Of a stretch of 35,357 nucleotides of DNA, positions 1,526 to 34,242 are shown piece by piece. The translations under genes and the position numbers were made by a program. Below the pieces are notes generated by a model. That model did not search any database, was not told where the DNA came from, and worked only from the letters and a program-made list of their open reading frames with translations. The first letter of the stretch is position 1. Every line of letters begins with the position of its first letter. The DNA is from a virus (Duplodnaviria > Caudoviricetes): positions 1 through 35,357 of the IMG/VR virus record IMGVR_UViG_3300050158_000041; one strand, written 5' to 3'.

Positions 1526-1533
1526 TATAAATA
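1526..1533 (+). promoter_or_regulatory. TATAAATA box (exact T4 late-promoter consensus) upstream of the tail tube gene
   Basis: Intergenic, followed by an A/C-rich leader, AAGGA RBS and ATG 1577. One of 23 TAAATA boxes. Confidence 0.75.
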
Positions 1534-1576
1534 AGTCCAACGTGTTCCAAATAACAACTAAAACAAAGGAATTCTT

Positions 1577-2485
1577 ATGGCACAAGCAACAGGCTCTAAG
1601 CGTTGGCTAGCATTCATTCAGGAAGCTACTTTCGGCGCGACTCCAGCTACTCCACAAACTCAGTTGGTTGAGTTCATTAGTTTCAGTGGAAATCTAGACC
1701 GCCCAATCATCACAGATGCTTCGATTCGTTCTGACCGTCAAATCGCCTATGCGCGTGCTGGTAACGAGTCAGTTAAGGCTGATCTTGAAGTGGCAATGTG
1801 CGCAAGCAACTTTGACGTATTCCTTGAAGCTGCTTTGCAAGGTACGTGGGCTACCAACGTCCTGACAATTCCTGCTAGCTCGACCCAGCGTTCGTTTGCA
1901 ATTGAAGAAGGTTATACCGACCTTGCACAGTACCACACGTTCAACGGCTGCACGATTGACAGCGTTACGGTTGATGTTTCAACTGATGGCCTGGTAACCA
2001 CGAAGTTCAGCATTCTTGGTGCAACTGAATCTGCATTCAGCGCAACATCGATTGACAGCACTCCTACTGCTGTTGCAGCGAAGCCAAAGTTCTACCACGT
2101 CGGTGGTACGTTCAAGGAAGGTGGTACTGCAGTTGGCTATCTGTCTGCAATCAGCTGGACTCTGAAGAATAACCTTGTTGCGGCCAACGTACTAGGCACA
2201 GCTGGCGTTCGCAGTATTACTTCTGGCAAGGCAGAAGTGACGGGTAAGGCTACTGCTCTGTTCGAAGACGCAACTGTCTATAACAAGTGGAAGAACAACA
2301 CTGACACCTCCATTGAATTCACGCTGACAGACGGCACGAACAGCCATACCTATTTGTTCCCGAAGGTCAAGTACGTCAAGGGCAGTATGTCTAGTACCGG
2401 CGACGGTCCAGTAACAGTCGAACTTGAATTCAACGCGATTTACGACACTACAGCGGGTACTTCTCTGAAGATCACACGCGTGTAA
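1577..2485 (+). CDS. Major tail (tube) protein
   Basis: 302 aa, Thr/Ser/Ala-rich, E.TFG.TP N-terminus, located before chaperones and tape measure. Confidence 0.9.
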   Translation: MAQATGSKRWLAFIQEATFGATPATPQTQLVEFISFSGNLDRPIITDASIRSDRQIAYARAGNESVKADLEVAMCASNFDVFLEAALQGTWATNVLTIPASSTQRSFAIEEGYTDLAQYHTFNGCTIDSVTVDVSTDGLVTTKFSILGATESAFSATSIDSTPTAVAAKPKFYHVGGTFKEGGTAVGYLSAISWTLKNNLVAANVLGTAGVRSITSGKAEVTGKATALFEDATVYNKWKNNTDTSIEFTLTDGTNSHTYLFPKVKYVKGSMSSTGDGPVTVELEFNAIYDTTAGTSLKITRV

Positions 2486-2511
2486 TCCAAATAGCGGATA
2501 GCGAACAAGCA

Positions 2512-2547
2512 TAAATAAAAGGCCTCGAATCGAGGCCTTTTACTTTT
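2512..2547 (+). terminator. Intrinsic terminator whose 5' arm overlaps a TAAATA box
   Basis: TAAATA 2512-2517 runs into TAAAAGGCCTCG-AAT-CGAGGCCTTTTA followed by CTTTT. Confidence 0.8.
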
Positions 2548-2559
2548 GAGGAAATCATT

Positions 2560-2940
2560 ATGCAGCTATCTAAATTATTCCCCATCGCCGTTCCGCTAGA
2601 AATTGAAATGCCTACCGGTGAGAAAACGGGAATCGTTTTCCAAATCGTTGGTCAGGACAGTAAAGCGTTCCGCACAACCGCTAAGCGCATTGCGGAGGCC
2701 AACTTGAAGCGCCAGGACGCAGCTACCGTTGATGAGATGTATAACCAAAGCATTGAACTGGTGTGCTCATGTGTTGTTGGCTGGAGTGGTCTGGAGCAAG
2801 ACGGAAGCGATCAGCCGCTTGAGTATTCACCAGAAAAGGCATTGGAGCTGCTATCAAACCCCGAACTGCAATTCATTCGTGAGCAGGTTGAGGCGTTCAT
2901 TACGCAGCGTGCTACTTTCTTTCAACACACTAAAAAGTAA
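2560..2940 (+). CDS. Tail assembly chaperone (gpG-like)
   Basis: 126 aa between tube and tape measure, with G.DS..FR, VGWSG and terminal R.TFF motifs. GAGG RBS. Confidence 0.85.
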   Translation: MQLSKLFPIAVPLEIEMPTGEKTGIVFQIVGQDSKAFRTTAKRIAEANLKRQDAATVDEMYNQSIELVCSCVVGWSGLEQDGSDQPLEYSPEKALELLSNPELQFIREQVEAFITQRATFFQHTKK

Positions 2941-3322
2941 GATTTCGGACTTTGTAGCTCATAGCGTACGAATGAACACTCCCAATAGCCAGGGAGTTAC
3001 TAGAAAGCGCACGCTAGAGTTTGGCCGAGACATGATGCGTAAAGCGGGTCGGTCTGAGGAGGACTTAGCCCGCATCTATGCTGAATTGGATTATGAAGGG
3101 CCACCGAAAGGCTCTGAGTACATCACCAGCATCTTTAGTGCCTTGTCCTCTCGTCGTCAGTACGGAATGGGTGGCCCGATGCCTATTTCGTTTCTGGAGA
3201 TAGATGCATACCAACGGCTCCTTGATGTAGAGCTGTCTCCTTTCGACGTTGAGTTGTTGGTAGACATGGACAACCGGTGGCTGCATGAGCGTTCTGTGTT
3301 AGCGAATAGCAGCAGTGAGTGA
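2921..3322 (+). CDS. Tail assembly chaperone extension (gpT-like), probably reached by frameshift; start uncertain
   Basis: R..GMGG.MPIS..EI.AY..L motif. Overlaps the end of gpG in the +1 frame. No clear RBS before ATG 2972. Confidence 0.75.
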   Translation, partial: FNTLKSKISDFVAHSVRMNTPNSQGVTRKRTLEFGRDMMRKAGRSEEDLARIYAELDYEGPPKGSEYITSIFSALSSRRQYGMGGPMPISFLEIDAYQRLLDVELSPFDVELLVDMDNRWLHERSVLANSSSE

Positions 3323-3353
3323 TCGCGTCTAAATACTCGATAAGAGGTATCCA

Positions 3354-6300
3354 ATGGACATTCTGAATCTACTATTTCGTGTTAACACATCACAGGTTAC
3401 AGCAGCCCAACAGCAAGTTGCTGCATTGGGCTCCACCACTAACACCGCCGCTCAATCAGTAAACTCATTGGGTACTGCGGCTAGTGGTGCAAATAGCCAG
3501 ACGGCTCAATTGAGTGGCACTGTTAATACCGCTACTGGATCATTCAATTCGTTCAGTAATGCCGTTGGTAACAGCTACACAAACGTCAACTACTACACCA
3601 AGGCACTCAACGTCGTTCCCGGGCTTGTCAGTTCAGCGAGCGCCACACTAAACACGCATACCAACACACACAATAAAGCGTCTGTCAGTATTGGCAACAC
3701 AACTAAGGCACTGAACGGATTTACGGCCTCAGCTAACGTTGCACGGGGTGTCGCTGGTTACGTTAACTCCACACTGTCTTTAACACCGTCGATTGCTAGC
3801 ACTGCCACTTCTGGCTTTGCTACGTTGTCTAGTGGCTTAACCGGTGTCGCATCGGGTATGGGCTTGGTGGGTTCTGCGGTGCTTGGAGCGACGGTAGTGC
3901 TCGGGACATTTGCTGTCGCAGCTACGGCCGTTCTCGCAGCCGTCATTCCTCTCGCATCTGCCGCCATCAATGCGGCTGACCATTTTGACGAGATGTCTGA
4001 CCGTACAAACATCTCTGCTACTCGTCTGCAGTTGCTCGACGTTGCTGCAAAGCTTGGTGGCGCGTCACTGGATGAATTGATTCAAAGCTCCGAATCTCTG
4101 TCTGCCAAGCTGGCTAAGCAGGATGAGGAAACCGGCAAGGTTACCAATGCCATTAAGGCACTGGACGTAGAGCAAAAGAACGCTGATGGCACATTCAAGA
4201 GTTCCCTGCAATTGCAGGAAGACATTGTTATGGCCGTTAAGAAGAAGAAAGACGCGCTCAACGACGCTAAAGAAGCTGGTGAATCAGACAAGAAGCTCAC
4301 CGAGCTGAGTAACCAAGTGACTATTGCACAGTCCCAAGCCGTTACGGCGTTGGGTGCTCAGTACTGGAAGCTCGCTCCAGCGATTGAACAGACGGCAGAA
4401 AAGAAGGGTGAGTTGTATGACCGTATGGTCCGCACTAACCAACTTATCTCCGGTCCGTTTGCTAAATCATCCGGAGACTTTAAGGACTCGTTGGATCGCC
4501 TTAGTGGCGCATTTGGGGGCATTGGTAACTCAATTGCTGAGTTTGCATTACCCGGGATTCAAGGCTTTGTTAGCTGGGTCACTCAGGGCATTGAGAAGGT
4601 AGCGGAGTTAGTTAAACAGTTGCTGGGGCTCTCAACCGGATCTGAAACATACCTTAAGAAGATCCAAGACATAGACGAGAAGATTGCAAGTAAAGAGAGC
4701 AAACGTGATGGCTTACGTGCTGATGCAGCTAACGGAAAGTCTCTGTTCGGTGGCAATTGGTTTACGTCAGCGGAAGACAAACTTGCAAAGACCATTGATG
4801 GTGAAATTAAGAATCTGAGGGATCAGCGCGTCCGACTGAGTAACGCATACGCCGAAGAGCGGAAGAAAGCTGAGGAGGAGCGCAAGAAGGCTCTACAAGG
4901 CGAAAAAGGCGAGGGTACTGGCACAGCGGGCGGAACGGTAAACATTCCCACAGCACCAAAAGCTGAGCAGAAGATTGCTGAGAACCCGATCACTAAAGAC
5001 ATTGCAAACGCTCGCGTACAGCTTGCTCAGTTGGAGTCTGAGTACGCTGCGCTATTGTCTGGACGGACAGCAAGTACAAACGTTGACAAGCTTGAGGCGG
5101 CAATTTCAGCAGGCAAATACGATGCCAAGTATGCGATTGACCCGAAGACTGGCAAGGAAGACAAAACTAAGATGACGCAACAAGCAGCTACCCCCGAGGA
5201 GCTGCAAAAGATGCGTGAGGTGGAAGCAACCAAAGACAAGGTTGCTGCGATGAAGCTGGAGGAGGATCAGCAAAATCGGTTGGCTGATGCTGCAGACAGT
5301 GCTATTCGCCAAGAGGAGCTGAAACTTCAATCGTACAGGGATTCTATTGAAGAGCAAAAGATTGCTGACAGTGTTCTCCGGGAGTACGGCACAACACAAG
5401 CTGATGTCACTGTTGCGTTGACAGAATACCGTTTGCAAAAAATAGAGGACATGCTTACTGATGAGAAACGTATTTCTCTCGGGTATGAAGAGATTCGCGT
5501 ACTAGAGGCGAAGCGGGACGTTCTGAAACAGACTCTAGAACTGAATAAGAGTGAGCGTCAACGTAAACAAAAGGATGATACGAGCCAGAACACTTATACG
5601 GATGGATGGAACAAGGCGTTCAAGGACTTTGAAAAGGCTGCTACAGATTCTGCTTCTGCTGGTAGGAAAGTGTTTGAATCTTTTGCTGGTGCTACGGAGG
5701 ACGCAATCTATAACGCAATGACGACTGGTAAGGCGTCATTCAGTGATTTTGCCAAATCAGTACTCTCAGACATTGCAAGGATTGCAACCAAGCAGGCTGC
5801 TTTGTGGATTTTCAAATCGATGGGGTTGTTTGCTAATGGTGGCGTGTTTGGTTCCAGTGTTAGTGAAAATGCTAAGGGAGGCGTGTTTAGCAGCGGCGCA
5901 AAGATGTTTGCCAAGGGTGGAGCATTCACTGGCGGCGTAGAGGCATTCGCAAACGGAGGCTCGTTCACCAACAACGTTTATGACAAACCGACTATGTTCG
6001 CCATGAGCAATGGCGGGTTGGGCGTGATGGGTGAAGCTGGTCCAGAAGCTGTAATGCCATTGGTGCGTATTGCTGGCGGCCAGCTGGGTGTACAGACGGA
6101 AGGTGGTGGCCAGGAGGGTGTGCTGCCGTTGAGCCGGATGGCGAATGGAAAGTTGGGCGTTAACACTACCAGCTACGTGGCAGGTGACAGTAGCTCAACA
6201 AGCACTAGTTCTAATAAGACGTCGACGACAAGTGTCTCCATGTTTGCTACTGGTGGGACATTCACCAATAACACCTACTCCCGTCCAACGCTATTTAAGT

Positions 6301-6797
6301 TTGCGAAGGAGCGGCTGGGTGTTATGGGTGAAGCTGGTCCAGAAGCTGTAATGCCATTGTCACGTACGTCGGACGGCCAGATGGGCGTTGAAGCAGAAGG
6401 CGGCGGACGAACAAACGTCTTGCCTCTGATCCGGATGGCGAATGGCAACCTTGGTGTTGATAGCACAGTTGCTAAGACAGCCGATCAGACTGAACCTGCA
6501 TCAGACCTGTTGATGAATTCCGTTGGGAATGTCTTCGGGACATCCTCCTTTGACAGCACGTCGCAGAAGACAGCCAACGCAATTGCTGGGCCTGCGTACA
6601 CACAAAAGAGTGTTGTCGATTCATCGACTGCTACTGCTACACAGTACACCATCACCGTTGGAGACATCATCGTTCAGGGTGGCAACACCAACGAAGAGAC
6701 GGCGGCAACTTTACAGAAGACGATGATTGAAACGATGCGCAAGGTTGCCCAAGGCGAAATCTTGAGTGCTAAACGCTACGGCGGCGCGCTGGCTTAA
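3354..6797 (+). CDS. Tape measure protein
   Basis: 1147 aa, helical and Ala-rich, with lambda-family C-terminal FAxGG and MGEAGPEAVMPL motifs. TAAATA at 3330. Confidence 0.93.
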   Translation: MDILNLLFRVNTSQVTAAQQQVAALGSTTNTAAQSVNSLGTAASGANSQTAQLSGTVNTATGSFNSFSNAVGNSYTNVNYYTKALNVVPGLVSSASATLNTHTNTHNKASVSIGNTTKALNGFTASANVARGVAGYVNSTLSLTPSIASTATSGFATLSSGLTGVASGMGLVGSAVLGATVVLGTFAVAATAVLAAVIPLASAAINAADHFDEMSDRTNISATRLQLLDVAAKLGGASLDELIQSSESLSAKLAKQDEETGKVTNAIKALDVEQKNADGTFKSSLQLQEDIVMAVKKKKDALNDAKEAGESDKKLTELSNQVTIAQSQAVTALGAQYWKLAPAIEQTAEKKGELYDRMVRTNQLISGPFAKSSGDFKDSLDRLSGAFGGIGNSIAEFALPGIQGFVSWVTQGIEKVAELVKQLLGLSTGSETYLKKIQDIDEKIASKESKRDGLRADAANGKSLFGGNWFTSAEDKLAKTIDGEIKNLRDQRVRLSNAYAEERKKAEEERKKALQGEKGEGTGTAGGTVNIPTAPKAEQKIAENPITKDIANARVQLAQLESEYAALLSGRTASTNVDKLEAAISAGKYDAKYAIDPKTGKEDKTKMTQQAATPEELQKMREVEATKDKVAAMKLEEDQQNRLADAADSAIRQEELKLQSYRDSIEEQKIADSVLREYGTTQADVTVALTEYRLQKIEDMLTDEKRISLGYEEIRVLEAKRDVLKQTLELNKSERQRKQKDDTSQNTYTDGWNKAFKDFEKAATDSASAGRKVFESFAGATEDAIYNAMTTGKASFSDFAKSVLSDIARIATKQAALWIFKSMGLFANGGVFGSSVSENAKGGVFSSGAKMFAKGGAFTGGVEAFANGGSFTNNVYDKPTMFAMSNGGLGVMGEAGPEAVMPLVRIAGGQLGVQTEGGGQEGVLPLSRMANGKLGVNTTSYVAGDSSSTSTSSNKTSTTSVSMFATGGTFTNNTYSRPTLFKFAKERLGVMGEAGPEAVMPLSRTSDGQMGVEAEGGGRTNVLPLIRMANGNLGVDSTVAKTADQTEPASDLLMNSVGNVFGTSSFDSTSQKTANAIAGPAYTQKSVVDSSTATATQYTITVGDIIVQGGNTNEETAATLQKTMIETMRKVAQGEILSAKRYGGALA

Positions 6798-6810
6798 AAG
6801 GAGAAGAACA

Positions 6811-7155
6811 ATGCCACAAGCTTTACCTCTAACAAACATGATTGGCCAATCAAGCACTCGCACTCGCAAATACAAGACGCTGAGTGCCGAATTTGCTAAC
6901 GGATACAGTCAAACAGCACCAGACGGAATAAACGCCACCCAGGATTCGTGGGCGATTAAATACGAGAACCTTTCGTCTTCAGAGCGTGGTGCTGTGATGG
7001 CGGTACTAGATGCAGTGGGCTCGTGGGACTACCTAACGTGGCAGGCCCCTGGCGACGCATCAGTGAAGAAATGGAAAGTCTCGATGGATGGTTGGACTGA
7101 AAGTACAACAGGTGCTTTGTGGTCCATGTCATTCACGTTGAAACAGGTGTACTAA
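6811..7155 (+). CDS. Distal tail protein (lambda gpM-like)
   Basis: F.NGY.Q..PDGIN motif. AGGAG RBS favours ATG 6811. Confidence 0.88.
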   Translation: MPQALPLTNMIGQSSTRTRKYKTLSAEFANGYSQTAPDGINATQDSWAIKYENLSSSERGAVMAVLDAVGSWDYLTWQAPGDASVKKWKVSMDGWTESTTGALWSMSFTLKQVY

Positions 7156-8276
7156 TGACCGTCACTACAGCAATGGCAACAGAGCTTCAGAACCTGCATC
7201 AAACAGATGCGTGGGTGGAGCTATACACACTCGACTGCACAGCCATAGGCGGGGCGGTCTACAGGTTCACTCCACACTTTTCAGATTCAGGCGTCGTCTA
7301 TTTTGGCGGAGATGGATACATGTCTCTGCCGATTACCAGCGATGGATGGGAAGTCTCTGCAACAGGCACACAACCACGCCCAACATTATCTGTATCGAAC
7401 GTGGCGAAGACACTACTCAACGCTATTAACACATTGGGTGACATCGTTGGCGCAAAGGTAACTCGTATTCGCACTAAGGTGCGCTTTCTTGATTCAGCTA
7501 CTTTCAGCCGGGTCAATCTGCTTAACTACTCCGAAGACTTTAGTCAAGCTGTATGGGTAACGACCAATGCGTCAGTTAGTCGGTCTACTGCCTCCGTTGC
7601 AGCTGGAGCAAAGACTGCGTTCAAATTAGTAGAAGATGGAACAGCCTCAATCGCACACAAGGTACAGATCGGCAGTTTGGCAGTGGCGGTAGGGCAGCAA
7701 CATACCGTGTCGTTCTATGCAAAGGCTGGCGAACGCAGTTTTCTCTCGGTTGACGCGGGTGTTACAAACCGGTATTCAGCGCTTCAGCGTTGTGATGTGA
7801 ATCTCAACAACGGAAGCCTGTCGGCATTCAGTCAAGGCACATTTGGATTTGGGTCAACCGACGTTGGGAATGGATGGTTTCGGTACGTTGTCAGCTTGCC
7901 CCCGGTAACCGCAGCAGGTAACAACTCAATCACATTCAACCTCAAGCCCAGCGATACGAACAGTCGCGTCTATAACGGAGACGGCACTTCAGGCTGCTAC
8001 TTGACTGGCGTGCAGTGGGAGCTTGGAACTTCCGTTTCGCCATACCAATACACAACGACAAGCCATCAGCCGTTTGCGGATTCAAATGCGTTCCTAAAGC
8101 CAGATGTCTACTTTGTAGAGCAAAAGACCGCTCATACTGCGGAGATTGTTCAATGGCAGCTAGTAAGTGCGATTGAGCGATTAGGGATGAAGTTGCCGCG
8201 ACGCCAAATCTTCCGCGACGCGACTAAGAATAGCTCTGGCTTCCCAGGCGTATCACGGTATCGCGGATACAACTAA
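7155..8276 (+). CDS. Minor tail protein (lambda gpL-like) with an inserted carbohydrate-binding-like domain
   Basis: gpL motifs PRPTL.VSN, GAKVTRIRT..RFLD..F and LPRRQI flank a ~190-aa insert (NLLNYSEDF..W to GVQWE.G...SPY). Confidence 0.85.
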   Translation: MTVTTAMATELQNLHQTDAWVELYTLDCTAIGGAVYRFTPHFSDSGVVYFGGDGYMSLPITSDGWEVSATGTQPRPTLSVSNVAKTLLNAINTLGDIVGAKVTRIRTKVRFLDSATFSRVNLLNYSEDFSQAVWVTTNASVSRSTASVAAGAKTAFKLVEDGTASIAHKVQIGSLAVAVGQQHTVSFYAKAGERSFLSVDAGVTNRYSALQRCDVNLNNGSLSAFSQGTFGFGSTDVGNGWFRYVVSLPPVTAAGNNSITFNLKPSDTNSRVYNGDGTSGCYLTGVQWELGTSVSPYQYTTTSHQPFADSNAFLKPDVYFVEQKTAHTAEIVQWQLVSAIERLGMKLPRRQIFRDATKNSSGFPGVSRYRGYN

Positions 8277-8321
8277 ACCCCGAGTTGTGAGCTGGCGTAA
8301 ATACATGATCGGAGGAAGATC

Positions 8322-9050
8322 ATGATTACGCTGGAGCAAAGGGATGAATTTGAGAAACATGCAATTGCACATTACCCTGAAGAGGTGTGCGCAGTAATTG
8401 CTGGTGGGAACCTCATTCTTTGTCAGAACGAGGCGGAAGATAGGAATAGCACCTTCAAGATTTCAGCCGAGAAATTGATTGAGGCTGAGATTTTGCATGG
8501 ACCGCTTGATTTGGTGTTGCATACCCATAGCGGCGCATCAGCTGGTCGCTGGCCTCGTCATTGGCCTTCTGGACAAGACATGCAGTCGTGGATGCACGGC
8601 TCTACCCCTTGGCTCATTTTTGCTTGCAATGGCGAAGGCTTGGGTGAGCACTGTGTATTGGACGACGCTAACCCCGCACCACTAGAGGGGCGCGAGTTCA
8701 TTCACGGCATTAACGACTGCTACTCATTGATCCGCGACTATTTTCGTATGGAGAAGGGTATTACCTTGCCGAATTACCCGCGTGACATGGAGTGGTGGGC
8801 TAAAGATAAGGATTTATACAGCGAGAACTTTGAGGCGGCAGGCTTTGTGGAAATACCTGCTGACCAAGTTCGCTCAGGGGATTGCATGATGATTCAATTC
8901 CGTAGCGACGTTATTAATCATGCTGCGGTAGTTATTGATGAATCGAGAATCCTTCATCACATGATTCATCGTCTTAGTGGTTACGACGATTGGAGTAAAT
9001 GGCACCGTGTCGCTGCAAAGTATGTCCGCTACGTTGGAGAAAAACAATAA
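8322..9050 (+). CDS. Tail tip protein gpK-like (JAB/MPN + NlpC/P60)
   Basis: HTH...PS..D JAB-like motif, plus GREF.HG..DCY, NHAAV and ILHH NlpC/P60 motifs. Confidence 0.93.
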   Translation: MITLEQRDEFEKHAIAHYPEEVCAVIAGGNLILCQNEAEDRNSTFKISAEKLIEAEILHGPLDLVLHTHSGASAGRWPRHWPSGQDMQSWMHGSTPWLIFACNGEGLGEHCVLDDANPAPLEGREFIHGINDCYSLIRDYFRMEKGITLPNYPRDMEWWAKDKDLYSENFEAAGFVEIPADQVRSGDCMMIQFRSDVINHAAVVIDESRILHHMIHRLSGYDDWSKWHRVAAKYVRYVGEKQ

Positions 9051-9937
9051 TGATTCGTACAGTACACCTACACGGCCCATTGGCCGAAAAGCTAGGTTAT
9101 ACAGAACCGCTTACTTTTGATGCGGATAATGTGCAAACTCTTATCAACGGTCTAACGATGTCGTTTCCAGACATCCGATCCGTTATGTTGGAGTTTTCTG
9201 ATGTGGCAATTGTTTTGCGTGATGGTGAGGAGTTGAAATCTCTGTCAGCAGAGCGTTTGCAGTACAACTTCGGGTTTGAGCCAGAGATTCACATTGCTGG
9301 TGCCATTAACGGGGCAGGTATCGAGACATTAACAGCGTTCTTCGTCATGGAGATGGAGATTTCATACGTTGCAGCAACTATTGCTGCGTACGCTGTTGCA
9401 ATTGCCGGAATGTATGCTGTCGGTCAAATAATTCAGTCGATGGCGGAAGTTCCTCAGAGCGCCACCGCTGAGGAAAAAGCAGCTAACTCTTCGTATCTGT
9501 TTAACGGCGCAGAAACTGTCGTAGGGCAGGGTTATCCCGTTCCGTTGATTTATGGTCGCTATCTAGTGGGTTCAGCTGAAATTAGTACAGAGCTATCTGC
9601 TGAGCGACTAGCTGTGGCACTAAATGATAACGTCTCCATCGATTTGCTTTATGAATCAGGCAAATCTGGCAATGTGCTGACAAATGACGTGTTTGGCTCC
9701 AGTTCAACGGTTTCATCGTTCACCATCAACGGAGTTACCACAGCTGCTGGCGGCACGTATAACAACGGTCAGATTTCAGTCACGATTGCAGCGAATGGTG
9801 CCTACACCATTATTCCGACGGTAACAGGTGATTGGGCGGTTACATACAACGCAACCAATGCGGCACATGGAAGTTCAAGTGCTGTTATGCAGATTAACGT
9901 CTCTCTTTCATTCGTGGATAGCTACGGTAGCCCTTAA
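9050..9937 (+). CDS. Tail assembly protein gpI-like with a C-terminal Ig-like extension
   Basis: RTV.LHG.L start and SY.FNG....GQG.PVPLIYG motif. The extra C-terminus (GNVLTND...ANGAYT) resembles an Ig/VCBS-type repeat. TAATG coupling. Confidence 0.85.
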   Translation: MIRTVHLHGPLAEKLGYTEPLTFDADNVQTLINGLTMSFPDIRSVMLEFSDVAIVLRDGEELKSLSAERLQYNFGFEPEIHIAGAINGAGIETLTAFFVMEMEISYVAATIAAYAVAIAGMYAVGQIIQSMAEVPQSATAEEKAANSSYLFNGAETVVGQGYPVPLIYGRYLVGSAEISTELSAERLAVALNDNVSIDLLYESGKSGNVLTNDVFGSSSTVSSFTINGVTTAAGGTYNNGQISVTIAANGAYTIIPTVTGDWAVTYNATNAAHGSSSAVMQINVSLSFVDSYGSP

Positions 9938-9991
9938 AGACCGCTAAAAGAGACCCAGCCTAAATACCTCCGTTCCTATTCGGAGGTTTGA

Positions 9992-22966: not shown

Positions 22967-23047
22967 AAATCTGCACAAAACTAGGCGCTCGTCATAAATA
23001 GGTAGTGGATGGCGTAAGGAACCGTCCACTACTTAAAGGAAAACACC

Positions 23048-25673: not shown

Positions 25674-26119
25674 CCTAGTCTCCAATTAAAAGGGGCCTGG
25701 ACCAAAATAGCCCAAGCCCCAGTTCCTCTCTGACTCCCCAGCCAGGAACAGGAAGTGAAGGCCAATCCCTCACATCCTGCACGTCTATTTAGTAGGGGAA
25801 CATAAACCCGGCCGCAACTTTGTCATTTAGCCGCCTGCAAATTCCCCTGCGAACATAAGCAACACAAATAGCAGAAGCAGCAAGTACAAGAGAAACAGCA
25901 ATTAGAGGAACAGCATCAGTAATAACAATAGACTAAAGCTAAGGGGAAGTACAAGAGGCAAAGAAGAAAGGGAAAAGCTAACGGGGAGGAAAGAACACAT
26001 CACGCCCACAATGTCTGACTCTCGTAAAGCAGTCCACCATTAGCAGCTGTGAGAAGTGAGTTAATCCTGGCCTGAGCTGAGTACATCCGGGCGCATTGCT
26101 TCCGTATTCATCTCACCAT

Positions 26120-26213
26120 TCAGCTGGCCATAAATTCACAAATCAGCTAGACACAGACAGAGCTACATCAGCTGGACATAAACTCACAAATCAGCCGTAC
26201 ATAAACTCATAGG
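26120..26213 (+). repeat. Four imperfect ~23-bp iteron-like direct repeats
   Basis: TCAGC..(A/C)CATAAA(C/T)TCACAAA units starting 26120, 26143 (degenerate), 26168 and 26191, followed by an AT-rich tract 26214-26253. Confidence 0.75.
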
Positions 26214-26776
26214 AATTTTTTTTTAGAAGGCAACAGGAAAATAAATTTATTTTGTGGGTATTTTCCCCCATGCCCATAAACACTATTCCACTGCCCATTC
26301 AACTGTTTTGCATTGACACGACAGTTACGCAGGCAGGGGACTTCACTAAACCTGTATGGACCACTGGGATTGTCGAATGCGCGGACAACCTAGGATGGAA
26401 TTTCAGGTTGCCTGTTGCTGCCTTCCCGGGGCTAGCAGGACAATAAAAGGTTTTGCCCCAATTAAATGTCCTACTAATTAGGGTGACTATCTGTTGACCT
26501 GGCAATAAGGCTCGTTCAGTCAACATTTATTTGAATGGCTGTCTCTCCGTAGGTACTCAGCTACAACTCATGCGCTTTTGTAGATAAACCCTAATTCCCC
26601 TGTAGTGATGCGCAGTTAGGGTAAGACTTCTGATTTATGCCCCGACTATTGATGCCGCTGCAAACCCACTATTCATGCGGGTGTTATGCGTTGTCTATCT
26701 AGCAGGGAGCACGGAGGATAGACGAGTGGGAAAGCGTGCCCGGTTAACAGCTTGGGGCTACTCGACTAAATAAGAA

Positions 26777-26992: not shown

Positions 26993-27169
26993 TCAATCAA
27001 ACGGCAGAACAATGTCTAAGTCCTGTTGCCTTTCCCACCAGTGTTCGTGTTCCTGGTGAGCGACTTGCCATTCTTCCATCGTGATCTCGGTGACTTCAAC
27101 ATCGAGTTCTTGACGACTGAACAGAAGCCGCATACGCATCGCTTCACTCAGCGGTATTTCCTTCTTCAT
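26993..27169 (-). CDS. Small acidic hypothetical protein (58 aa; below the ORF-track cutoff)
   Basis: AGGAG RBS. MKKEIPLSEAMRMRLLFSRQELDVEV...VLPFD*. Ends just before the bidirectional terminator at 26958-26981. Confidence 0.7.
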   Translation of the reverse strand: MKKEIPLSEAMRMRLLFSRQELDVEVTEITMEEWQVAHQEHEHWWERQQDLDIVLPFD

Positions 27170-27404
27170 TGGTAACTCCTAAATGCCATCCGATTGACGG
27201 CAAAGGTACTTTCCAATGAGTACCAAATAGAGGCTACCAATCAGCTTACGGTTTAGGCTGGTACTGGCATTCCTTTGGCTAAACCCTTCATCTTCAATCA
27301 AATGCTGGGGCTTGGCTACTAAAGAGCATTCATTTCAGGAGGCGTTTATGTCCCCTTGCATAAATAAGAGAGCCGGTGAAGGAATCCGGCGAAGGAGAAC
27401 AACT

Positions 27405-28107: not shown

Positions 28108-28124
28108 CATTGGGGAAGACTGCT

Positions 28125-28283
28125 TTACTTCACTTGGACAACAGCAGTAATGCGCAGGTTCTTGATACCTTGTTCCTTCGCCATCGCCTTAACCTTTTGC
28201 TCAGCTTGTTCGGTGGTATCAGCTTCGACTTGGATGGTATAGACACGACCGACGCTAGAGCAGATGACGTTGAAGGTGAACAT
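28125..28283 (-). CDS. Small hypothetical protein (52 aa)
   Basis: GGAG RBS before ATG 28283. The I.VEA.T.EQA pattern is common in phage early proteins. Confidence 0.7.
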   Translation of the reverse strand: MFTFNVICSSVGRVYTIQVEADTTEQAEQKVKAMAKEQGIKNLRITAVVQVK

Positions 28284-28353
28284 TTGGAACTCCGGTTGCT
28301 TTGTTGCTTGCGATGAGTCCACTATCTAAGGGCAGTACCAATAAGACAACGAG

Positions 28354-28395: not shown

Positions 28396-28773
28396 TCACT
28401 TCTTCGACAGCTCCTTGGAAATGTTTGCGTAGTAGGTAGCAGAGCCAGCCGGAGACAGGCCGATCTGTGCGAACTGGGCCAGGATTTCTTTGCGAGACAG
28501 CTTGCCGAAATGCTTGGCCATGATCGCCCGAGCCTTGTCCACCTTGCTCTCACCCTTCGCTTCCTTGGTCTCTGCGGGCTTCGGCTCAGGCATCACCAGC
28601 TTGCCGCTCATCTTTTGCATCATCGCCTTCTGTTCGTCCACCAGCTTCATCGTGGCTGCATCGGCGATCTTGACAACCGGCTTGACTGCTTCGACTGCGT
28701 TTTCCGGAGCAGCGGTGTTGTTGTCAGCCTTCACAGCCTTGACGGACTTGGTAGCGGTGGTCTTGGTAGCCAT
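28396..28773 (-). CDS. Phage protein with Lys/Ala-rich N-terminus and a C-terminal HTH-like domain
   Basis: AAGGGA RBS before ATG 28773. SK..KARAI...RKEI.....GL..AG.ATYY.N pattern. Confidence 0.8.
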   Translation of the reverse strand: MATKTTATKSVKAVKADNNTAAPENAVEAVKPVVKIADAATMKLVDEQKAMMQKMSGKLVMPEPKPAETKEAKGESKVDKARAIMAKHFGKLSRKEILAQFAQIGLSPAGSATYYANISKELSKK

Positions 28774-28918
28774 TTGGAAATCCCTTCGTTGGGTTGGTTG
28801 CGGTGAAGTCAACTATCCCTAGGTCTACCAAACAAACAACTGCTGATAAACACCCACAAGACGACCGTTGCCTCCAAACGCCTAAATACCCTCCATAACA
28901 ACTACAAGGGATTTGGCG

Positions 28919-29362
28919 ATGTCAGACATCATTCCAGGCCGTGAGGCTCATCCGGGCAAGCAGGGACGTGAGCTGTCGCGTGCTTCTGAAGACCAACTGA
29001 AAACAATCCATCACCTAGCGTCACAGGGTAAGTCGCTCCGAATCATTGCGGCTCGTATTGGCATTTCGTACACAACGCTTGACGCATGGCTAGGAAACAG
29101 CAGGGAGAAGGCGAAATACGCTGATCCTCGCGTTCGTGCTGCGTGGGAAGCTGGTATTGCAGAACATGAAGACGCGTTGACAGGTGTTCTCCACAGCGCA
29201 ATTGATAACCCAAAGCACAAGATGCAGATTCCGGCAGCGATGTTCATGCTGAAGGTAAAGCACAAGTGGTCAGAACGTCATGAGGTTGCGGTAAGCGAAC
29301 AACCTAAAGCTCCCGTCAAGTTCAAAACCAAGGACATCACACCAGATCAGGACAGCGAATGA
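28919..29362 (+). CDS. terS: Terminase small subunit
   Basis: HTH (IAARIGISYTTL..W) and A.MF.LK..H.W motif. Immediately upstream of terL. TAAATA 28883. Confidence 0.85.
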   Translation: MSDIIPGREAHPGKQGRELSRASEDQLKTIHHLASQGKSLRIIAARIGISYTTLDAWLGNSREKAKYADPRVRAAWEAGIAEHEDALTGVLHSAIDNPKHKMQIPAAMFMLKVKHKWSERHEVAVSEQPKAPVKFKTKDITPDQDSE

Positions 29363-30744
29363 GTGAAGCAGTCTTAAATGGCTGCGAGGTGATGCCTTGG
29401 GACCTGCTAGACGAAGAAGTACATGACCAACAAACAGACGAACAGGATCAGTACTTTGAGGTTGAGCTTCTACGGCACCAGAAGCAGTTTGTAGACGACA
29501 CAACCACCCGCGAAATCGCTCTTGTCGGGGGTTTTGGCTGCGGAAAGACTGAGGCGCTGGTCTACAAAGCGGTCACGTTAGCGGCTCTCTGTGCAGGCAA
29601 GTTGAAGGACGACGGGATTGGCCTACTGATAGAGCCAAACGATACACAGGTAAGGCAGCTACTTCGCCCACGGTTTGAGGCGATCTGCAACAACCTCAGC
29701 ATTCCGTTTTCTGTCAAGAACTCACCACGCCTTATCTACACACTGCATTTCGAAGACGGCGACGTTCCGATTCTAATGATGCCTGCCGGGAGCGGTGCAG
29801 ACTCGTTCCGTGGCTTTCAGTGCGCGTTCGTAGGCGTTGATGAAGCTGACACGATGGACCCCGTTAACTTGTGGGACCTGTGGATTAGCTTGTCGTCTCG
29901 TATGCGCGGCTGTACTGATCCGAAGTACCCACACTATCAGCTGTTTGCTACGACGACTCCTGAAGGCTTCGGGTTTTGCTATCAGAACTGGGTTTCCGAT
30001 CTTGAAGAACGGCCTGACCTAAGTGCAAAACGGAAGCTGGTCAAAGGCAAGACAAAGTGGAATCCGTATTTGCCGTTTGACTACATCGATAACTTGGAGG
30101 CTCGTTATCCTAAGGTGTTGTTGTCAGCCTATTTGGAAGGCGAATTTGTCAACCTAGAAGGCAACATCGTCTATACCGAGTTTGATCGAGCATTAAATGG
30201 CACTTCAAAGACGCTTAGTGACTTCAACGAGAAACAGATTATCCACATTGGCGTGGACTTCAACAATAACAAGACATGTGGCATTGTGTCAGTTATTGAC
30301 GGTGGCGTTCCGTACATTGTTGATGAGATAACAGGCCAACGTAATACAAAAGCTCTGTGTGAGGAAATCAAAGAGCGTTATCCCAACCGTGCAGTCTACA
30401 TTTACCCGGACGCTGCTGGACGGCAAGTGACAACCAATGCGGACGCTTCAAACCTACAAATCCTGAAAGAAGCAGGTTTCCAAGTATTCGCGCACGGCAA
30501 GAACCCACGCGTCAGTAACCGTGTGGCGAGCGTTAATGCGATGTTTTGCAATGCCAAGGATGAACGCCGCATGTTTGTTAATACGAAGAAGTGCCCGGTA
30601 TTGACGAAAACGCTAGAGCAACAGAAATACCACAACGGCGAACCAGATAAGAAGCACGATCTTGACCACCCGAACGACGGCTTAGGCTATTTCGTTTGGT
30701 ATCGCTTCCCGATCATCGGTCGTCCTACTGCGTCCATTGGTTGA
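29359..30744 (+). CDS. terL: Terminase large subunit
   Basis: Walker A GGFGCGKT, Walker B VGVDE, TTTPEG coupling motif, and nuclease motifs GVDFN and DHPND. Confidence 0.97.
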   Translation: MSEAVLNGCEVMPWDLLDEEVHDQQTDEQDQYFEVELLRHQKQFVDDTTTREIALVGGFGCGKTEALVYKAVTLAALCAGKLKDDGIGLLIEPNDTQVRQLLRPRFEAICNNLSIPFSVKNSPRLIYTLHFEDGDVPILMMPAGSGADSFRGFQCAFVGVDEADTMDPVNLWDLWISLSSRMRGCTDPKYPHYQLFATTTPEGFGFCYQNWVSDLEERPDLSAKRKLVKGKTKWNPYLPFDYIDNLEARYPKVLLSAYLEGEFVNLEGNIVYTEFDRALNGTSKTLSDFNEKQIIHIGVDFNNNKTCGIVSVIDGGVPYIVDEITGQRNTKALCEEIKERYPNRAVYIYPDAAGRQVTTNADASNLQILKEAGFQVFAHGKNPRVSNRVASVNAMFCNAKDERRMFVNTKKCPVLTKTLEQQKYHNGEPDKKHDLDHPNDGLGYFVWYRFPIIGRPTASIG

Positions 30745-30791
30745 TGGGTGGACAGATAAATACCGATTACAACAAGAACAAAGGTTAGCGA

Positions 30792-32297
30792 ATGATTAAC
30801 AACAACACGAAAGACGAACAGGTACTCGTTGCAGGTCTTTCAGCTGGCGAATTGGTTGGGATGCTGAAGTGCGACGAAGCAGAGTTCGCAGCCAAAGCAC
30901 TGAACTACTACGACGGCAAGCAAGAGAAGGAAATGGTCGAACTGCTCAACCATCCCGAAAAGGGCCGTAAGCAGTGGAAGAAGCGTGGCTACATCGCCCG
31001 TCACCGCAATCTGACCAAGATGATCGTTGAGAAGAGCGCAATGCTGTTCAAGGACGCACCGCCGCAGCTGGAGGTTCGTCTTCCTGGCAGCGATCAACCG
31101 TCCGTCCCTGCGACTGAAGCGGTTGTTGATCTGCTGGACGGTACGGAATGGCAAGAGACGATGGCGAACCTAGACGCTGTAGTCCGCCTGCTGAAGACTG
31201 GCCTGTTGCTTGTTCAGTGGGATACGGCAGAAGGCAAGCCGGTGTTTGACATCCTGCACCGCGGAAACGCAGCTGTTGTGACGAACCCGCTGACGAAGGG
31301 TGTAGACGTACTGGTTCAACGCACGGGCTGCTCCGGCAAGGCTCACTACTACCGCATCTGGTCTGCTGAGACGATTTGGGATGTCGTTGAGCTTGACCAG
31401 GACGTATCGCTATCCGCCACGACTCCGAACACGTACGGCATCGTTCCGGTGGCTGTGTTCTATGACACCAACGCACCACGTAACGGCTTCTGGGTCGATG
31501 CGCCTCGTGACCTAGTGAACGTCAATGAGATGTACAACCTGCACCTGACTGACAGCGAATTTGCTATCAGCTGGATGAAGCGCCCGAGCCTGTTCACCAA
31601 CTGCACGCTTGATGGCTACACAGACGAACAGATCGAAGTCGCTGAGGTGTACGGCTCTGTCCTGCCTCGCGCTGTCTCTCGCACGCCTTCTCTCACAGCT
31701 GGCCCGGACATCGCAGTTGTGGTTGGCAGCAGTGGTGGTGACACGCCTTTCATCGATTACAAGTCTCCGCAGATCGACCTGAAGCCAATGGACGACGTTG
31801 TTCAGGGCTGGGTGAAGCAAACGGCTGCTGATTGGTCTGTCCGTGTTCGCGCTGATGGTGAAGGCAAGGCTACGAGCGGTTTCCAAGTCGTCGTAGAGGA
31901 AATGCCAAACCTAGAGCTGCGTCAGCTACGCCAGCGCATGTTTGAAGCGGGTTTTAAGCGTTTCTATCGCCAACTAGCCGCTGTTTCTCCTATCGGATTG
32001 CCTGTCGAAGCTCAGTTGTTCGCTGTCTTCGCTAAACCAAACCTGCCAGTCGATCACAAGGCTGAAGAGGATGTGTGGAGCGTTCGCATCAAGGAAGGCC
32101 GCGCTACTGAGCTTGACTACTACATGCAAACGCAAGGCCTATCGAAAGACGAAGCAATGGCTAAGTGGGTCGAGGTTTGTGAGTTCCGTCAAGCGAAGGC
32201 AAAGATTGACCAGCTGCTAGCACCAGAAGTAGAACAGGACGCACAGAAAGACGTTCAAGAAGAAGATAAAGCAGAGAACGAAAACCCAGCAGAGTAA
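30792..32297 (+). CDS. Portal protein (SPP1-like)
   Basis: 501 aa after terL, with YY.G.Q and N.YG.VP motifs. TAAATA 30757. Confidence 0.88.
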   Translation: MINNNTKDEQVLVAGLSAGELVGMLKCDEAEFAAKALNYYDGKQEKEMVELLNHPEKGRKQWKKRGYIARHRNLTKMIVEKSAMLFKDAPPQLEVRLPGSDQPSVPATEAVVDLLDGTEWQETMANLDAVVRLLKTGLLLVQWDTAEGKPVFDILHRGNAAVVTNPLTKGVDVLVQRTGCSGKAHYYRIWSAETIWDVVELDQDVSLSATTPNTYGIVPVAVFYDTNAPRNGFWVDAPRDLVNVNEMYNLHLTDSEFAISWMKRPSLFTNCTLDGYTDEQIEVAEVYGSVLPRAVSRTPSLTAGPDIAVVVGSSGGDTPFIDYKSPQIDLKPMDDVVQGWVKQTAADWSVRVRADGEGKATSGFQVVVEEMPNLELRQLRQRMFEAGFKRFYRQLAAVSPIGLPVEAQLFAVFAKPNLPVDHKAEEDVWSVRIKEGRATELDYYMQTQGLSKDEAMAKWVEVCEFRQAKAKIDQLLAPEVEQDAQKDVQEEDKAENENPAE

Positions 32298-32313
32298 TAC
32301 CGATCTGCACAGT

Positions 32314-32342
32314 AAAGAGGCCCTCCGGGGCCTCTTTGTTTT
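32314..32342 (+). terminator. Intrinsic terminator after portal
   Basis: AAAGAGGCC-CTCCGG-GGCCTCTTT+GTTTT. Confidence 0.85.
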
Positions 32343-32398
32343 GGGAAAGCATAAATACATCCAGCAACCCCGGATGGGGTCATTTAAGGAGAAGCTGG

Positions 32399-33022
32399 AT
32401 GGCTGACGAAAACAACGTTCAAGTTGTTGAACAAGAACAGACACAAGTGTCGGATGACACAACCCAATCCCAAGTCGAATCGCAACAGACGGATGTCGAT
32501 GTTGATGACGTAGAGGCAAAGATTGCTGATCTACAAGCGCAACTAGCGAAGCAGCAAGAGATTGTTGAGAAGGCCCGTAAAGGCGAGAAGTACCAAAAGA
32601 GCAAGGCAGATGCTGAGGTCAAGAAGGTACTGGCGCAATACGAAGCCGAGAAGGCGCGCGCAGACGCCCTAGAGCAAAAGATTCGCAACGGTGCAATGGA
32701 CGGTGCCCTCCGTCAAGCGCTCAGCGAGAACGGTGCTAAAGCTGTGGATACGGCTTTGAAGTTGGTTGACCGAAGCGCAATCAAGATCGGTGACGACGGC
32801 TCAGTAAATGCAGATTCTGTTAAGGCAGTAATCGATGCATTGAAGGCTAGCGACTCGATTCTGTTTGACGCAGTAACGGAAGCCGCTCAAGCAACCAAAA
32901 CTGCTCCACCTGCGGTACGAGCTACTGAGGCCGACAAGATTTCTGGTTATGCAGCTGAAATGATGGCTGCTAAAACATCAAAGGAAGTACAGGCGGTTCT
33001 AAAGAAGTACGGTAAAGCATAA
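32399..33022 (+). CDS. Capsid scaffolding protein
   Basis: Acidic N-terminus and coiled coil, lies between portal and capsid. TAAGGAG RBS favours ATG 32399. TAAATA 32352. Confidence 0.85.
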   Translation: MADENNVQVVEQEQTQVSDDTTQSQVESQQTDVDVDDVEAKIADLQAQLAKQQEIVEKARKGEKYQKSKADAEVKKVLAQYEAEKARADALEQKIRNGAMDGALRQALSENGAKAVDTALKLVDRSAIKIGDDGSVNADSVKAVIDALKASDSILFDAVTEAAQATKTAPPAVRATEADKISGYAAEMMAAKTSKEVQAVLKKYGKA

Positions 33023-33069
33023 ATACCGGTACGTCTCCAAAAACAACAACAACAAACGGAGTTTAGAAA

Positions 33070-33990
33070 ATGGCATTTACAAGCAACCTGACTGGTACAG
33101 CGCAAATTGACGACAGCATCGTCCTAGCCTATGACCAGCAATTCATCGTTACTGTCGGCGAAGAAACCGCAATGGACCAATTCGCACAGTACAAGCAAGA
33201 AATCGACGCTAAGTCGATTCAGCTGACCAAGTACAACCGTCTGTCCCTGGCAACTACGCCTCTGTCGGAAACTGTGGACATTACGTCTGAAGCAGTGAAC
33301 GACAGCCAGATCCTGATTGCGCCTGTTGAATACGGTAACGCTGTTACTAAGACAAATCTGGCATCGCTGCAATCTGGCGGCAAGATTGACCTCGCTATTC
33401 CTACCCTCGTTGGTAAGAACATGGCGATGGTTAAGAACAAGCTGGCAATGCTGGCTCTGGAAGCATCGAGCAACGCTCTGATCATGAACGGTAAGACAGA
33501 ACCTACTCTGGCTTCTACCGACATCATCACCGGTAACCAACTGAACGTCATGTACAACAAGCTGGCACGTGCAAACGTTCCTACTGTTGCTGATGGCATG
33601 TATGTGATGGTTGCACACGACGACGTTATTCACGACCTGCGCCAAGACGCTGGCTGGATCAACGTTGCTACCTACCAGAACGCTTCGATGATCCTGAAGA
33701 ACGAAGTTGGTTCGTACCGTGGCTTCAAGGTCGTTCGTAACAACCTGGCATTCGTTGCTGACCAGTCTGGTGCTGGTACGGTTGATACGTACAAGACAGC
33801 CTTCTTCGGCGCAAACGGTCTGGGTCTGGTTGAGAGCCAAGCTCCTCGCCTGACCATCACCGGTCCGTTCGATACCCTGGGCCGCACTATCAACATCGGT
33901 TGGTACGGCGTTTTCAAATACGCCATCGTTGATACCGACGCTGTGTGGACTCTGATGTCTGCTTCGAGCGTTGGCGCTAACTTGGTGTAA
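33070..33990 (+). CDS. Major capsid protein (N4-gp56/P22-coat-like HK97 fold)
   Basis: 306 aa with EYGN, Y....H.DV..DLR.D, EVG...G and D.LGR....GWYG motifs. TAAATA overlaps the scaffold stop (33020). Strong terminator downstream. Confidence 0.92.
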   Translation: MAFTSNLTGTAQIDDSIVLAYDQQFIVTVGEETAMDQFAQYKQEIDAKSIQLTKYNRLSLATTPLSETVDITSEAVNDSQILIAPVEYGNAVTKTNLASLQSGGKIDLAIPTLVGKNMAMVKNKLAMLALEASSNALIMNGKTEPTLASTDIITGNQLNVMYNKLARANVPTVADGMYVMVAHDDVIHDLRQDAGWINVATYQNASMILKNEVGSYRGFKVVRNNLAFVADQSGAGTVDTYKTAFFGANGLGLVESQAPRLTITGPFDTLGRTINIGWYGVFKYAIVDTDAVWTLMSASSVGANLV

Positions 33991-34007
33991 TCAACTGAGT
34001 AACTGAC

Positions 34008-34031
34008 AAGGCCCGCTTCGGCGGGCTTTTT
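34008..34031 (+). terminator. Intrinsic terminator after capsid gene
   Basis: AAGGCCCGC-TTCG-GCGGGCTTTTT. Confidence 0.9.
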
Positions 34032-34047
34032 CATTTGGAGATTAGAA

Positions 34048-34242
34048 ATGGCATACAAACGAAAGACAAAACCCGCCAACGAAGTGCAACCAATAAATAC
34101 TCAACGCAAATACGAAGTAATCGTTCGTGAACTGCGCGGTCAAGTAAATGCCCGCAAGTTTATTGGCAGGCAGGGCGACATCCTAGAAATGGAGCCATGG
34201 GAAGCAAAGTTGCTTTCCGCATACGTTAAAGAGGTTCAGTAA
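34048..34242 (+). CDS. Small hypothetical head-module protein (64 aa)
   Basis: GGAG RBS, TAATG coupling to the next gene. Contains an internal ATAAATA at 34093-34099. Confidence 0.7.
   Translation: MAYKRKTKPANEVQPINTQRKYEVIVRELRGQVNARKFIGRQGDILEMEPWEAKLLSAYVKEVQ

Follow-up and report, generated by a model that had tools for sequence, protein, structure and literature searches.

The stretch of DNA analysed here (hereafter the window; 35,357 nt) is the whole of the IMG/VR virus record IMGVR_UViG_3300050158_000041 (Caudoviricetes), which is 95% complete. Scans of its 45 open reading frames (ORFs) against PHROG and Pfam revealed a complete siphovirus gene set, interspersed with copies of a short box, TAAATA, whose nature and likely reader are the subject of this analysis. 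A packaging and head module on the plus strand (28919-35357) encodes TerS and TerL, an SPP1-type portal, the scaffold, major capsid, adaptor, head closure and neck proteins. A connector and lambda-like siphovirus tail module on the same strand (57-15579) codes for the tail terminator, the tube, two chaperones, the tape measure, gpM, L, K, I and J, and a DUF4376 protein. By the same scans, no sigma factor, repressor, primase, helicase, polymerase, replicase or endolysin was detected among the 45 ORFs, and around 15 small proteins are without an annotated family. The window is not T4-like, in that it lacks gp55, a T4-type replisome, a gp23 capsid and a contractile tail and harbors siphovirus modules instead. 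It has no close cultured relative, the capsid matches among cultured phages being of 30% identity or less, and the non-structural region has no blastn match in cultured phages or plasmids.

TAAATA occurs 26 times in the window, compared to 7.5 expected occurrences, and none of 100 shuffles attains 26. All 23 positions listed in an initial annotation of this sequence were confirmed, while three unlisted copies (6292, minus strand; 6957, plus strand; 15976, minus strand) fall in coding DNA. Nearly all boxes had been described as intergenic, which holds for 20/26 when judged against the curated genes; those at 23656 and 34094 lie inside ORFs, and that at 33020 overlaps the scaffold stop codon. 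As dinucleotide shuffling of each intergenic segment yields only 2.4 boxes (maximum of eight in 1000 shuffles), AT content does not explain the 20 intergenic copies. No hexamer of the same composition exceeds three intergenic copies, except for the overlapping word ATAAAT. TAAATA is also the top-ranking hexamer upstream of genes (p ~1e-20), with 18/26 copies standing no more than 60 nt upstream of a start in the same orientation, so that its claimed position just before such starts applies to most copies, those at 21920, 23656 and 26767 having no annotated gene close downstream. On the basis of automatic ORF calls, 14 boxes are co-oriented with the downstream gene and two are opposite. In agreement with the initial annotation, 22 of the 23 listed sites have A or C directly before the box, and its observation that there is no shared -35 element extends to the family, in which 297 sites from 13 genomes carry 0.06 bits or less at any position from -45 to -2. 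A reading of TAAA as the -35 element of a sigma28 promoter was rejected by eye, as the downstream -10 is not conserved. A scan for sigma70 promoters found five sites, fewer than the 7.6 expected by chance.

A capsid profile search identified two prophages in GTDB genomes, in Variovorax fucosicus J22R193 (G001) and in a Hydrogenophaga chromosome (G002), as well as 80 viral contigs, and several boxes occupy the same place in these relatives. Within the tail module, boxes on the plus strand precede the tail tube (1528-1533; 49 nt from the start and at the same place in G002, G001 and a further relative, G003), a tail assembly chaperone (2512-2517), the tape measure (3330-3335), gpK (8298-8303) and gpJ (9961-9966), and another precedes a phrog_1084 gene (15627-15632). 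The packaging and head module is similarly furnished on the plus strand, with boxes before terS-terL (28883-28888; kept in G001, G002 and G003), the portal (30757-30762), the scaffold (32352-32357) and the major capsid gene (33020-33025), the last three being conserved in relatives, and before the head-tail adaptor gene (34094-34099), where the box lies inside u64b and is kept inside its homologue in G002 and G003. Between the modules, boxes precede u131 (18401-18406, minus strand), two small genes (18441-18446, plus strand) termed holin-like on sequence appearance only, as they have no family match, a lipoprotein-like gene at 19432-19824 (19867-19872, minus strand), u59-u162 (21201-21206, plus strand; kept in G002), u142 (22995-23000, plus strand; kept in G002), u299 (24540-24545, minus strand) and u86-u124 (27361-27366, plus strand). 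A further minus-strand box lies within the 3′ end of u299 (23656-23661), while two are found in non-coding DNA (25786-25791, minus strand; 26767-26772, plus strand), and one (25377-25382, minus strand) is located 200 nt upstream of, and on the same strand as, a structured element described below. The box at 21920-21925 (plus strand) has no close downstream gene and may give rise to a small or antisense RNA towards u203; in G002 a box is likewise present at the end of the u162 homologue.

The box is conserved well beyond the window. The two prophages contain 24 and 33 copies, while their host flanks (44 kb and 60 kb; 104 kb in total) contain none. Among 22 whole relatives, comprising the two prophages and 20 of 36 viral records that were picked for length and partly for the box, 17 are enriched at p<1e-4 and another lies on the border, and the remaining four, all complete, show no enrichment. 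Of 84 loci, 27 are enriched at p<1e-3, many of the loci being short or AT-rich. A further signature is found in the distance to the start codon: of the 296 family sites left after de-duplication, 18 have an ATG precisely 5 nt downstream of the box, against a background of 2% (p 4.5e-5, one of 31 offsets). Prior to de-duplication, 15/19 such cases open ORFs of at least 50 amino acids. Only TAAAAT among nine control hexamers shows a smaller bump at 5 nt (8/153). In the window the box before u131 stands 6 nt from the ATG, for which a leaderless transcript is predicted, and the G002 homologue has a spacing of 5 nt. The T4 late box is described as an 8-bp sequence from -13 to -6 without a -35 partner (PMC2988020), which places +1 at 5 nt beyond the box; a leaderless start at this distance is what would be expected of a gp55 promoter. 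The full T4 octamer TATAAATA is not matched, T being found at -2 in 8% of the window sites, and the box rather takes the short form found in jumbo phages and phiW-14. Shorter late motifs have been reported elsewhere, namely ATAAATA for the jumbo phages CBB and GAP32 (PMC5259590) and NATAAATA for cyanomyoviruses (PMC2984593). TAAATA itself tops the upstream hexamers of several gp55-encoding phages, including Delftia phage phiW-14 (7/12), RsoM2USA (12/28) and the jumbo phages G439 (50/81) and G445 (73/112) discussed below, and 16/70 gp55 loci are TAAATA-enriched at p<1e-3. Taken together, the sequence comparisons support the view that the TAAATA box behaves like a gp55-type late promoter. In phiW-14 (L095, L097), TAAGTA is observed as a second late-type box (8/17 upstream; 0/2 in the window).

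A factor that could read such a promoter was sought in the window and its relatives. The initial annotation held that no gp55 is encoded and saw no evident sigma-like ORF, and neither could be detected by PHROG, Pfam, a custom six-frame HMM or hhalign. The gp55 family phrog_234 is found in one of 39 records, the relative G014, and in neither the window nor the two host genomes. An HMM built from 44 gp55 sequences and run over six frames of 23 genomes likewise retrieved only G014, along with the gp55 proteins of T4 and phiW-14, both of which are part of the profile. PHROG annotation of 139 selected ORFs from eight relatives revealed no sigma factor.

A candidate source of the factor was found through shared non-coding DNA. 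In four sequencing runs a deeper contig matched the window only at 25025-25116, and a motif from the flank of that contig led to three large viral records representing one phage at 99.99% identity (G439-G441), extended by G451. This is an XacN1/RsoM2USA-like jumbo myovirus, with XacN1 (capsid 62%) and RsoM2USA as its nearest cultured relatives. Among 64 ORFs scanned, the G439 jumbo encodes gp55 (L226:1456-2070; E 1e-24) and a T4-type replisome, with genes for a family B polymerase, DnaB-like helicase, primase, SSB, UvsX, SbcCD and topoisomerase, in addition to a gp23-type head and a contractile tail. TAAATA is its top upstream hexamer (p 4e-48), and the box is preceded by A in 60% of G439 sites (35/52 in a separate count) and 58% of window sites (9/14 in a separate count). 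The G439 boxes precede the portal, scaffold, adaptor, sheath, tube, hub and RuvC genes and are absent before the helicase, primase, topoisomerase and SSB genes. Coactivator searches were less informative: a gp33 profile matched nothing, control phages included, and the gp33 and gp45 of phiW-14 gave a weak match (E 0.15) and no match, respectively, against G445. Group 2 jumbo phages are reported to carry a gp33 orthologue (PMC7824862), and T4 gp55 alone is described as directing accurate basal transcription on supercoiled DNA (PMC2988020). In two other records, G443 (C1:132713) and G449 (C1:36279-37643), the gp55 match lies within a 646-aa frame in two pieces, suggesting an insertion such as an intein.

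The jumbo phage and the small phage of the window are found together. Both are present in runs X5, X6 and X7, which are not marked as source runs; the jumbo gp55 region covers 30/30, 17/30 and 30/30 bins and the small phage 30, 9 and 18 of 30 bins, respectively. Run X10, which contains the jumbo phage and a minor share of the small phage, is left out of this count. Two jumbo records furthermore share a dataset number with L001, a record near-identical to the window. The codon usage of the window correlates with that of G439 at r 0.91, pieces of the latter filling the first seven places in a ranking of similar-GC loci, compared to 0.61-0.74 for the window's own kin of similar GC, 0.45-0.49 for phiW-14 and 0.37-0.41 for the hosts. 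The jumbo phage represented by G439, G440, G441 and G451 is the likely helper of this copy. The initial annotation had proposed a T4-like helper, which is apt insofar as a gp55 phage is concerned; rather than being a T-even phage, however, this helper is probably a jumbo myovirus related to T4 and similar in type to XacN1/RsoM2USA.

The DNA shared by the two is a structured non-coding element of ~240 nt with covarying positions (24944-25182 in the window, where flanking genes and G-U pairs favour the minus strand), which is common to the window, the jumbo phage (two copies) and the small phages G010 and G442. Compared with the two jumbo copies, the window sequence (24951-25170) has an identity of 83% over 223 nt with one and of 82% over 152 nt with the second, and is nearer to G439 (83%) than to G445 (69%), a complete 350-kb jumbo phage. 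A pattern scan identified 18 places, with copies syntenic in several diverged jumbo phages including G445, so that the element represents a core locus of the jumbo clade rather than a recent insertion. Both jumbo phages carry two copies ~77 kb apart (60.2 kb and 136.7 kb in G439; 250.0 kb and 327.5 kb in G445), which are syntenic, one after the RuvC gene and one before a NadM-Nudix-like gene, and point away from each other. Of ten newly found element-bearing records, seven encode gp55. The last two pattern scans returned 74 loci, comprising 19 with the full element, three with only its 3′ part and 52 chance or core-only matches. Seventeen of the 19 full-element loci have jumbo-clade neighbours, another is the window's near-identical record, and the last (L372) has a single jumbo-like neighbour. 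This locus (L372:945-9037) lies on a large low-GC phage contig with a gene run that by eye resembles a type I-F CRISPR-Cas system. A GOLLD RNA is located ~2.5 kb from one element copy in G445 (L259:5515-5926).

An alignment of 11 copies yields 24 predicted pairs, of which 12 show two-sided changes, and 92.5% of cells are paired compared to 32-45% in slid controls, which are lenient because the structure was derived from these same sequences. The structure is supported by covariation only, a signal that relatedness of the sequences can inflate, and single-sequence folding z-scores are not significant. No Rfam 15 family matches over the element at E values up to 1 in the window or eight loci; blastn of a jumbo copy against cultured phages and plasmids returned only three 27-nt chance matches, and no copy was present in 50 kb of RsoM2USA. 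Small box-positive carriers number three (the window, G010 and G442), none of which matches the primase-helicase genes of the family, and the relatives that do encode a primase-helicase (G001, G003 and G026) lack the element. This mutual exclusion would fit a role as borrowed replication origin or primer, although a trans-acting RNA is as likely as a primer RNA or origin, and in neither G439 nor G445 does GC skew single out the two copies as origins. A second candidate origin in the window is an iteron-like region at 26018-26275, where a pair of 39-nt direct repeats and a stretch rich in AT have weak counterparts in G005. Three islands (L322, L333 and L363) contain only the 3′ part of the element. 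Two of these, L322 and L333, encode an integrase ~40% like that of the window and no virion genes in the stretch examined, and are possibly capsid-less satellites of the same helpers.

The site of integration is indicated by the Hydrogenophaga prophage G002, which is largely syntenic with the window and inserted in the 5′ end of dgt in a closed chromosome; it was the only match in a capsid search of 401 genomes from its family, and blastn searches for an E. coli member likewise returned no match. The window carries an attP region (17689-17883, plus strand; crossover core ~17858-17872) with a replacement 5′ end of the host dGTPase gene dgt (17724-17876) which matches the G002 site, and it therefore represents the attP form. 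The description of the window as an integrated element in the initial annotation is thus better applied to its relatives, the window itself being a virus record. Its tyrosine integrase gene (19953-21080, minus strand) lacks a box and its product shares 76% identity with that of G002. The full host dGTPase gene scores best as housekeeping dgt, and dgt-related att segments are also found at G002:C1:864590-864669 and 900414-900597 and in G003 (33849-33998), the phage supplying a new N-terminus and upstream region. Integration and excision could as such alter the expression of this dNTP-degrading enzyme, which is related to an anti-phage family.

Further genes without a box encode an H-NS-like protein (19006-19356, plus strand; the weak sigma70-like site upstream, 9/12, is within chance), u203, u89, u125, u54 and u58. 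Over its C-terminal 50 aa, u125 (28396-28773, minus strand) matches a candidate-helper protein at 47% identity (E 5e-6). Three small box-less minus-strand genes adjoin terS (26993-27169, 28125-28289 and 28396-28773), with a GATAGT hexamer upstream of two of them, and u54 and u125 homologues reappear in G002, G003 and G005. These genes are candidates for early or lysogen-expressed interference functions.

On this evidence from sequence, we consider it probable that the window is a complete small temperate siphophage whose boxes are read by host RNA polymerase together with the gp55-type late sigma factor of a co-infecting jumbo phage, making it a likely bacterial counterpart of a provirophage. 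As no factor of its own can be recognised, and the jumbo phage has gp55, the same box, the shared element and matching codons, the small phage is likely switched on only via the jumbo transcription machinery. The cycle would begin with integration into dgt of a Comamonadaceae-type host, as is the case for G002 and presumably for the window. The virion genes of the prophage would then stay off because the host, with no gp55 in either of two host genomes, presumably has no factor for a lone TAAATA, its own H-NS perhaps, more speculatively, helping to silence them. Upon infection, jumbo gp55 would give rise to many short monocistronic or leaderless late transcripts in step with the late phase of the helper. 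The excised circle would replicate with the T4-type replisome of the helper, possibly primed at the 240-nt element; this is the weakest step. The phage encodes its own head and lambda-like tail, and it would exit through lysis by the helper. Dependence on the helper probably extends to replication and lysis. The box pattern is real and conserved, and the small phage is probably a new kind of phage hyperparasite.

Several observations weigh against this proposal. A box is also found 80 nt upstream of the gene for the G439 DNA polymerase. Coverage in the shared runs is patchy in X6 (9/30 bins for the small phage, 17/30 for the jumbo phage) and, for the small phage, in X7 (18/30), and the runs, mostly from one habitat and year and possibly one campaign, were chosen for holding the small phage and are without a negative control. 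The nearest cultured relatives of the jumbo phage infect Xanthomonas, Stenotrophomonas and Ralstonia, while the presumed host of the small phage is of Comamonadaceae type, and the match in codon usage partly tracks GC. Within the family, G001, G003 and G026 encode their own primase-helicase, G001 also an endolysin, and four complete capsid relatives (G017, G020, G022 and G024) are without box enrichment. The Hydrogenophaga prophage has neither the element nor a primase, so that the replication step is not general. Finally, since about 15 small proteins of the window are unannotated, a wholly new factor could be encoded among them.

It is from this last point that the strongest competing explanation is drawn, namely that the window is an autonomous temperate phage in which one of these family-less proteins is a new TAAATA-reading factor, the likeness to jumbo promoters being inherited or convergent. 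Autonomy does occur in the family, given that G014 has its own gp55. Other results speak against this explanation. Comparison by hhalign of 26 window proteins with gp55 and sigma profiles gives a best probability of 0.9%, against 98% for a left-out phiW-14 gp55. The predicted model of u162 (pLDDT 89) has no PDB match, nor does the protein show one by sequence features, and u203 resembles Trans_reg_dom-type proteins rather than sigma factors. No candidate is conserved across the box-positive relatives: no non-structural window gene is common to all of them, and the widest non-structural clusters span 5/15 genomes. As autonomy would also leave the shared element, the codon match and the lack of a replicase and endolysin unexplained, we regard it as improbable.

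Slightly less credible again is that the boxes are gp55 promoters whose true helper is another gp55 phage, for instance one like phiW-14, with the contribution of the jumbo phage limited to donation or exchange of the 240-nt element. TAAATA is used by phiW-14, a phage of the same host family, and with 16/70 gp55 loci enriched the hexamer specificity of gp55 looks broad; the second box of phiW-14, TAAGTA, is however not used by the window, the codon usage of phiW-14 correlates at 0.45-0.49 against 0.91 for G439, and the window element is closer to that of G439 (83%) than to that of G445 (69%). It is very unlikely that a host factor reads the boxes, or that they have no promoter function and are H-NS nucleation or repressor sites instead. 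The phage encodes H-NS and the box is AT-rich, the high-affinity consensus of H-NS being similar to it. The strict orientation (14 versus 2), the fixed 5-nt spacing to ATG, the absence of boxes from 104 kb of host flank and the enrichment in relatives without an H-NS match (G004 and G010) nevertheless speak against such a role. Least probable of all is a defective relic or assembly chimera of a once autonomous phage, in keeping with the lack of a replicase and endolysin and with window ends (1-1037 and 34270-35357) that overlap by ~1030 bp at only 80% identity, since the virion ORFs are all intact, the same architecture is found in the closed chromosome of G002 and in complete records with terminal repeats, and a second record is 100% identical to the window across 12.3 kb. 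The divergent end repeat, in which the adaptor, head-closure and neck genes are repeated, is of the same kind in L001 and reflects a genuine divergent duplication or else the joining of two strain variants during assembly.

If late transcription by the jumbo gp55 is accepted for the window, its reach within the family is nonetheless limited, as G014 has its own gp55 and the four complete relatives mentioned above lack the box, so that helper dependence is not family-wide. The G014 gp55 (L096:1453-1935) is 38% identical to the G439 protein and lies behind its own TAAATA-N5-ATG, which might constitute a self-amplifying loop, perhaps one still requiring a seed. Several of the proteins most similar to this gp55 sit on contigs of 235-497 kb, indicating that the gp55 captured once by this family is of jumbo type. 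Conversely, the 29.9-kb phage G442 (L284, L285), which has a different capsid, related tail and terminase genes and two tRNAs, carries TAAATA boxes (8/17), one copy of the 240-nt element and codon usage nearest the jumbo phage G445 (0.93, versus 0.79 for G439). The strategy is therefore not tied to one capsid family. A bolder extension, which we put forward tentatively and consider rather doubtful, is that of a widespread, undescribed guild of small complete tailed phages that would be bacterial provirophages, silent in the chromosome, induced genome-wide by the late sigma factor of an invading jumbo phage, copying its conserved 240-nt RNA as primer or origin to take over its replisome, draining late transcription from the jumbo phage and acting as an inducible, self-spreading anti-jumbo defence, with the gp55- and primase-capturing relatives as steps between parasite and autonomy.

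If the proposal is correct, the window represents a bacterial parallel of Mavirus and the giant virus CroV, a complete phage borrowing only the gene expression, and perhaps the replication, of its helper. Many of the 30-40 kb siphoviruses that appear ordinary in viromes would then not be culturable alone, and such parasites could be paired with their jumbo helpers through promoter motifs, shared non-coding DNA and codon usage. A conserved locus of the jumbo clade, the 240-nt element is itself undescribed, and what is new here is the linking of the box, the shared element and a gp55 jumbo phage in one system. A 2026 review lists just a handful of large-phage hyperparasites and does not settle whether these become more frequent with increasing helper size (PMC13359090). 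A literature search that extended to few subscription papers and no supplements brought up no account of a complete tailed phage driven by the gp55 of a helper.

The proposed promoters are similar to those of T4-family late transcription, where a lone -10 box without a -35 element precedes the virion genes and transcription is reported to start ~5 nt downstream (PMC2988020, PMC5259590, PMC2984593), a start that is predicted for the window. They differ in being carried by a temperate siphovirus of 34 kb that has none of gp55, gp33, clamp and replisome, and in having a 6-nt core without the leading TA. Like P4, phage-inducible chromosomal islands (PICI), cf-PICI and the PLE satellites, the small phage is of an integrating kind and, by prediction, triggered by its helper; ICP1 infection is described as turning on PLE transcription, for which a lifting of H-NS repression has been proposed (PMC13595925). 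These satellites are reported to take helper capsids and/or tails and to bring their own replicase (PMC10690885), while the window brings a whole virion and lacks a primase. Known phage satellites steal virion parts, and the strategy proposed for the window differs, as the initial annotation anticipated in calling it the reverse of P4, PICI and PLE. That description fits the possession of a full virion with transcription putatively supplied by the helper; the borrowing of a late activator, however, has a partial precedent, as P4 late promoters respond to the Ogr protein of P2.

With regard to the general features of a satellite, the small phage has its own capsid and packaging genes and is missing functions, the sigma factor and replisome, that are present in G439. 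The Streptomyces phage satellites MiniFlayer and MulchRoom are comparable in this respect, with their own capsid and packaging genes, no replicase, a large virulent helper and helper-like base composition (PMC10690885). The window has in addition a full lambda-like tail, whereas MulchRoom is thought to use the helper tail and MiniFlayer has short fibres; the host phylum also differs, and the main text of that report describes no shared-promoter mechanism (PMC10690885). The virophages, namely Mavirus with CroV and Sputnik and Guarani with mimiviruses, share with the window their own virion genes, integration (Mavirus) and a giant helper's late promoter placed before their genes (PMC6723459). 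The window differs from these in its bacterial host, its tailed HK97-type siphophage virion and a borrowed factor that is a putative sigma factor for host RNA polymerase rather than a viral polymerase in a factory, and as a tailed phage with bacterial prophage relatives it does not belong to the Maveriviricetes. By analogy of its proposed mode of life, the closest working parallel of the window is therefore a virophage, although it is not a virophage by descent.

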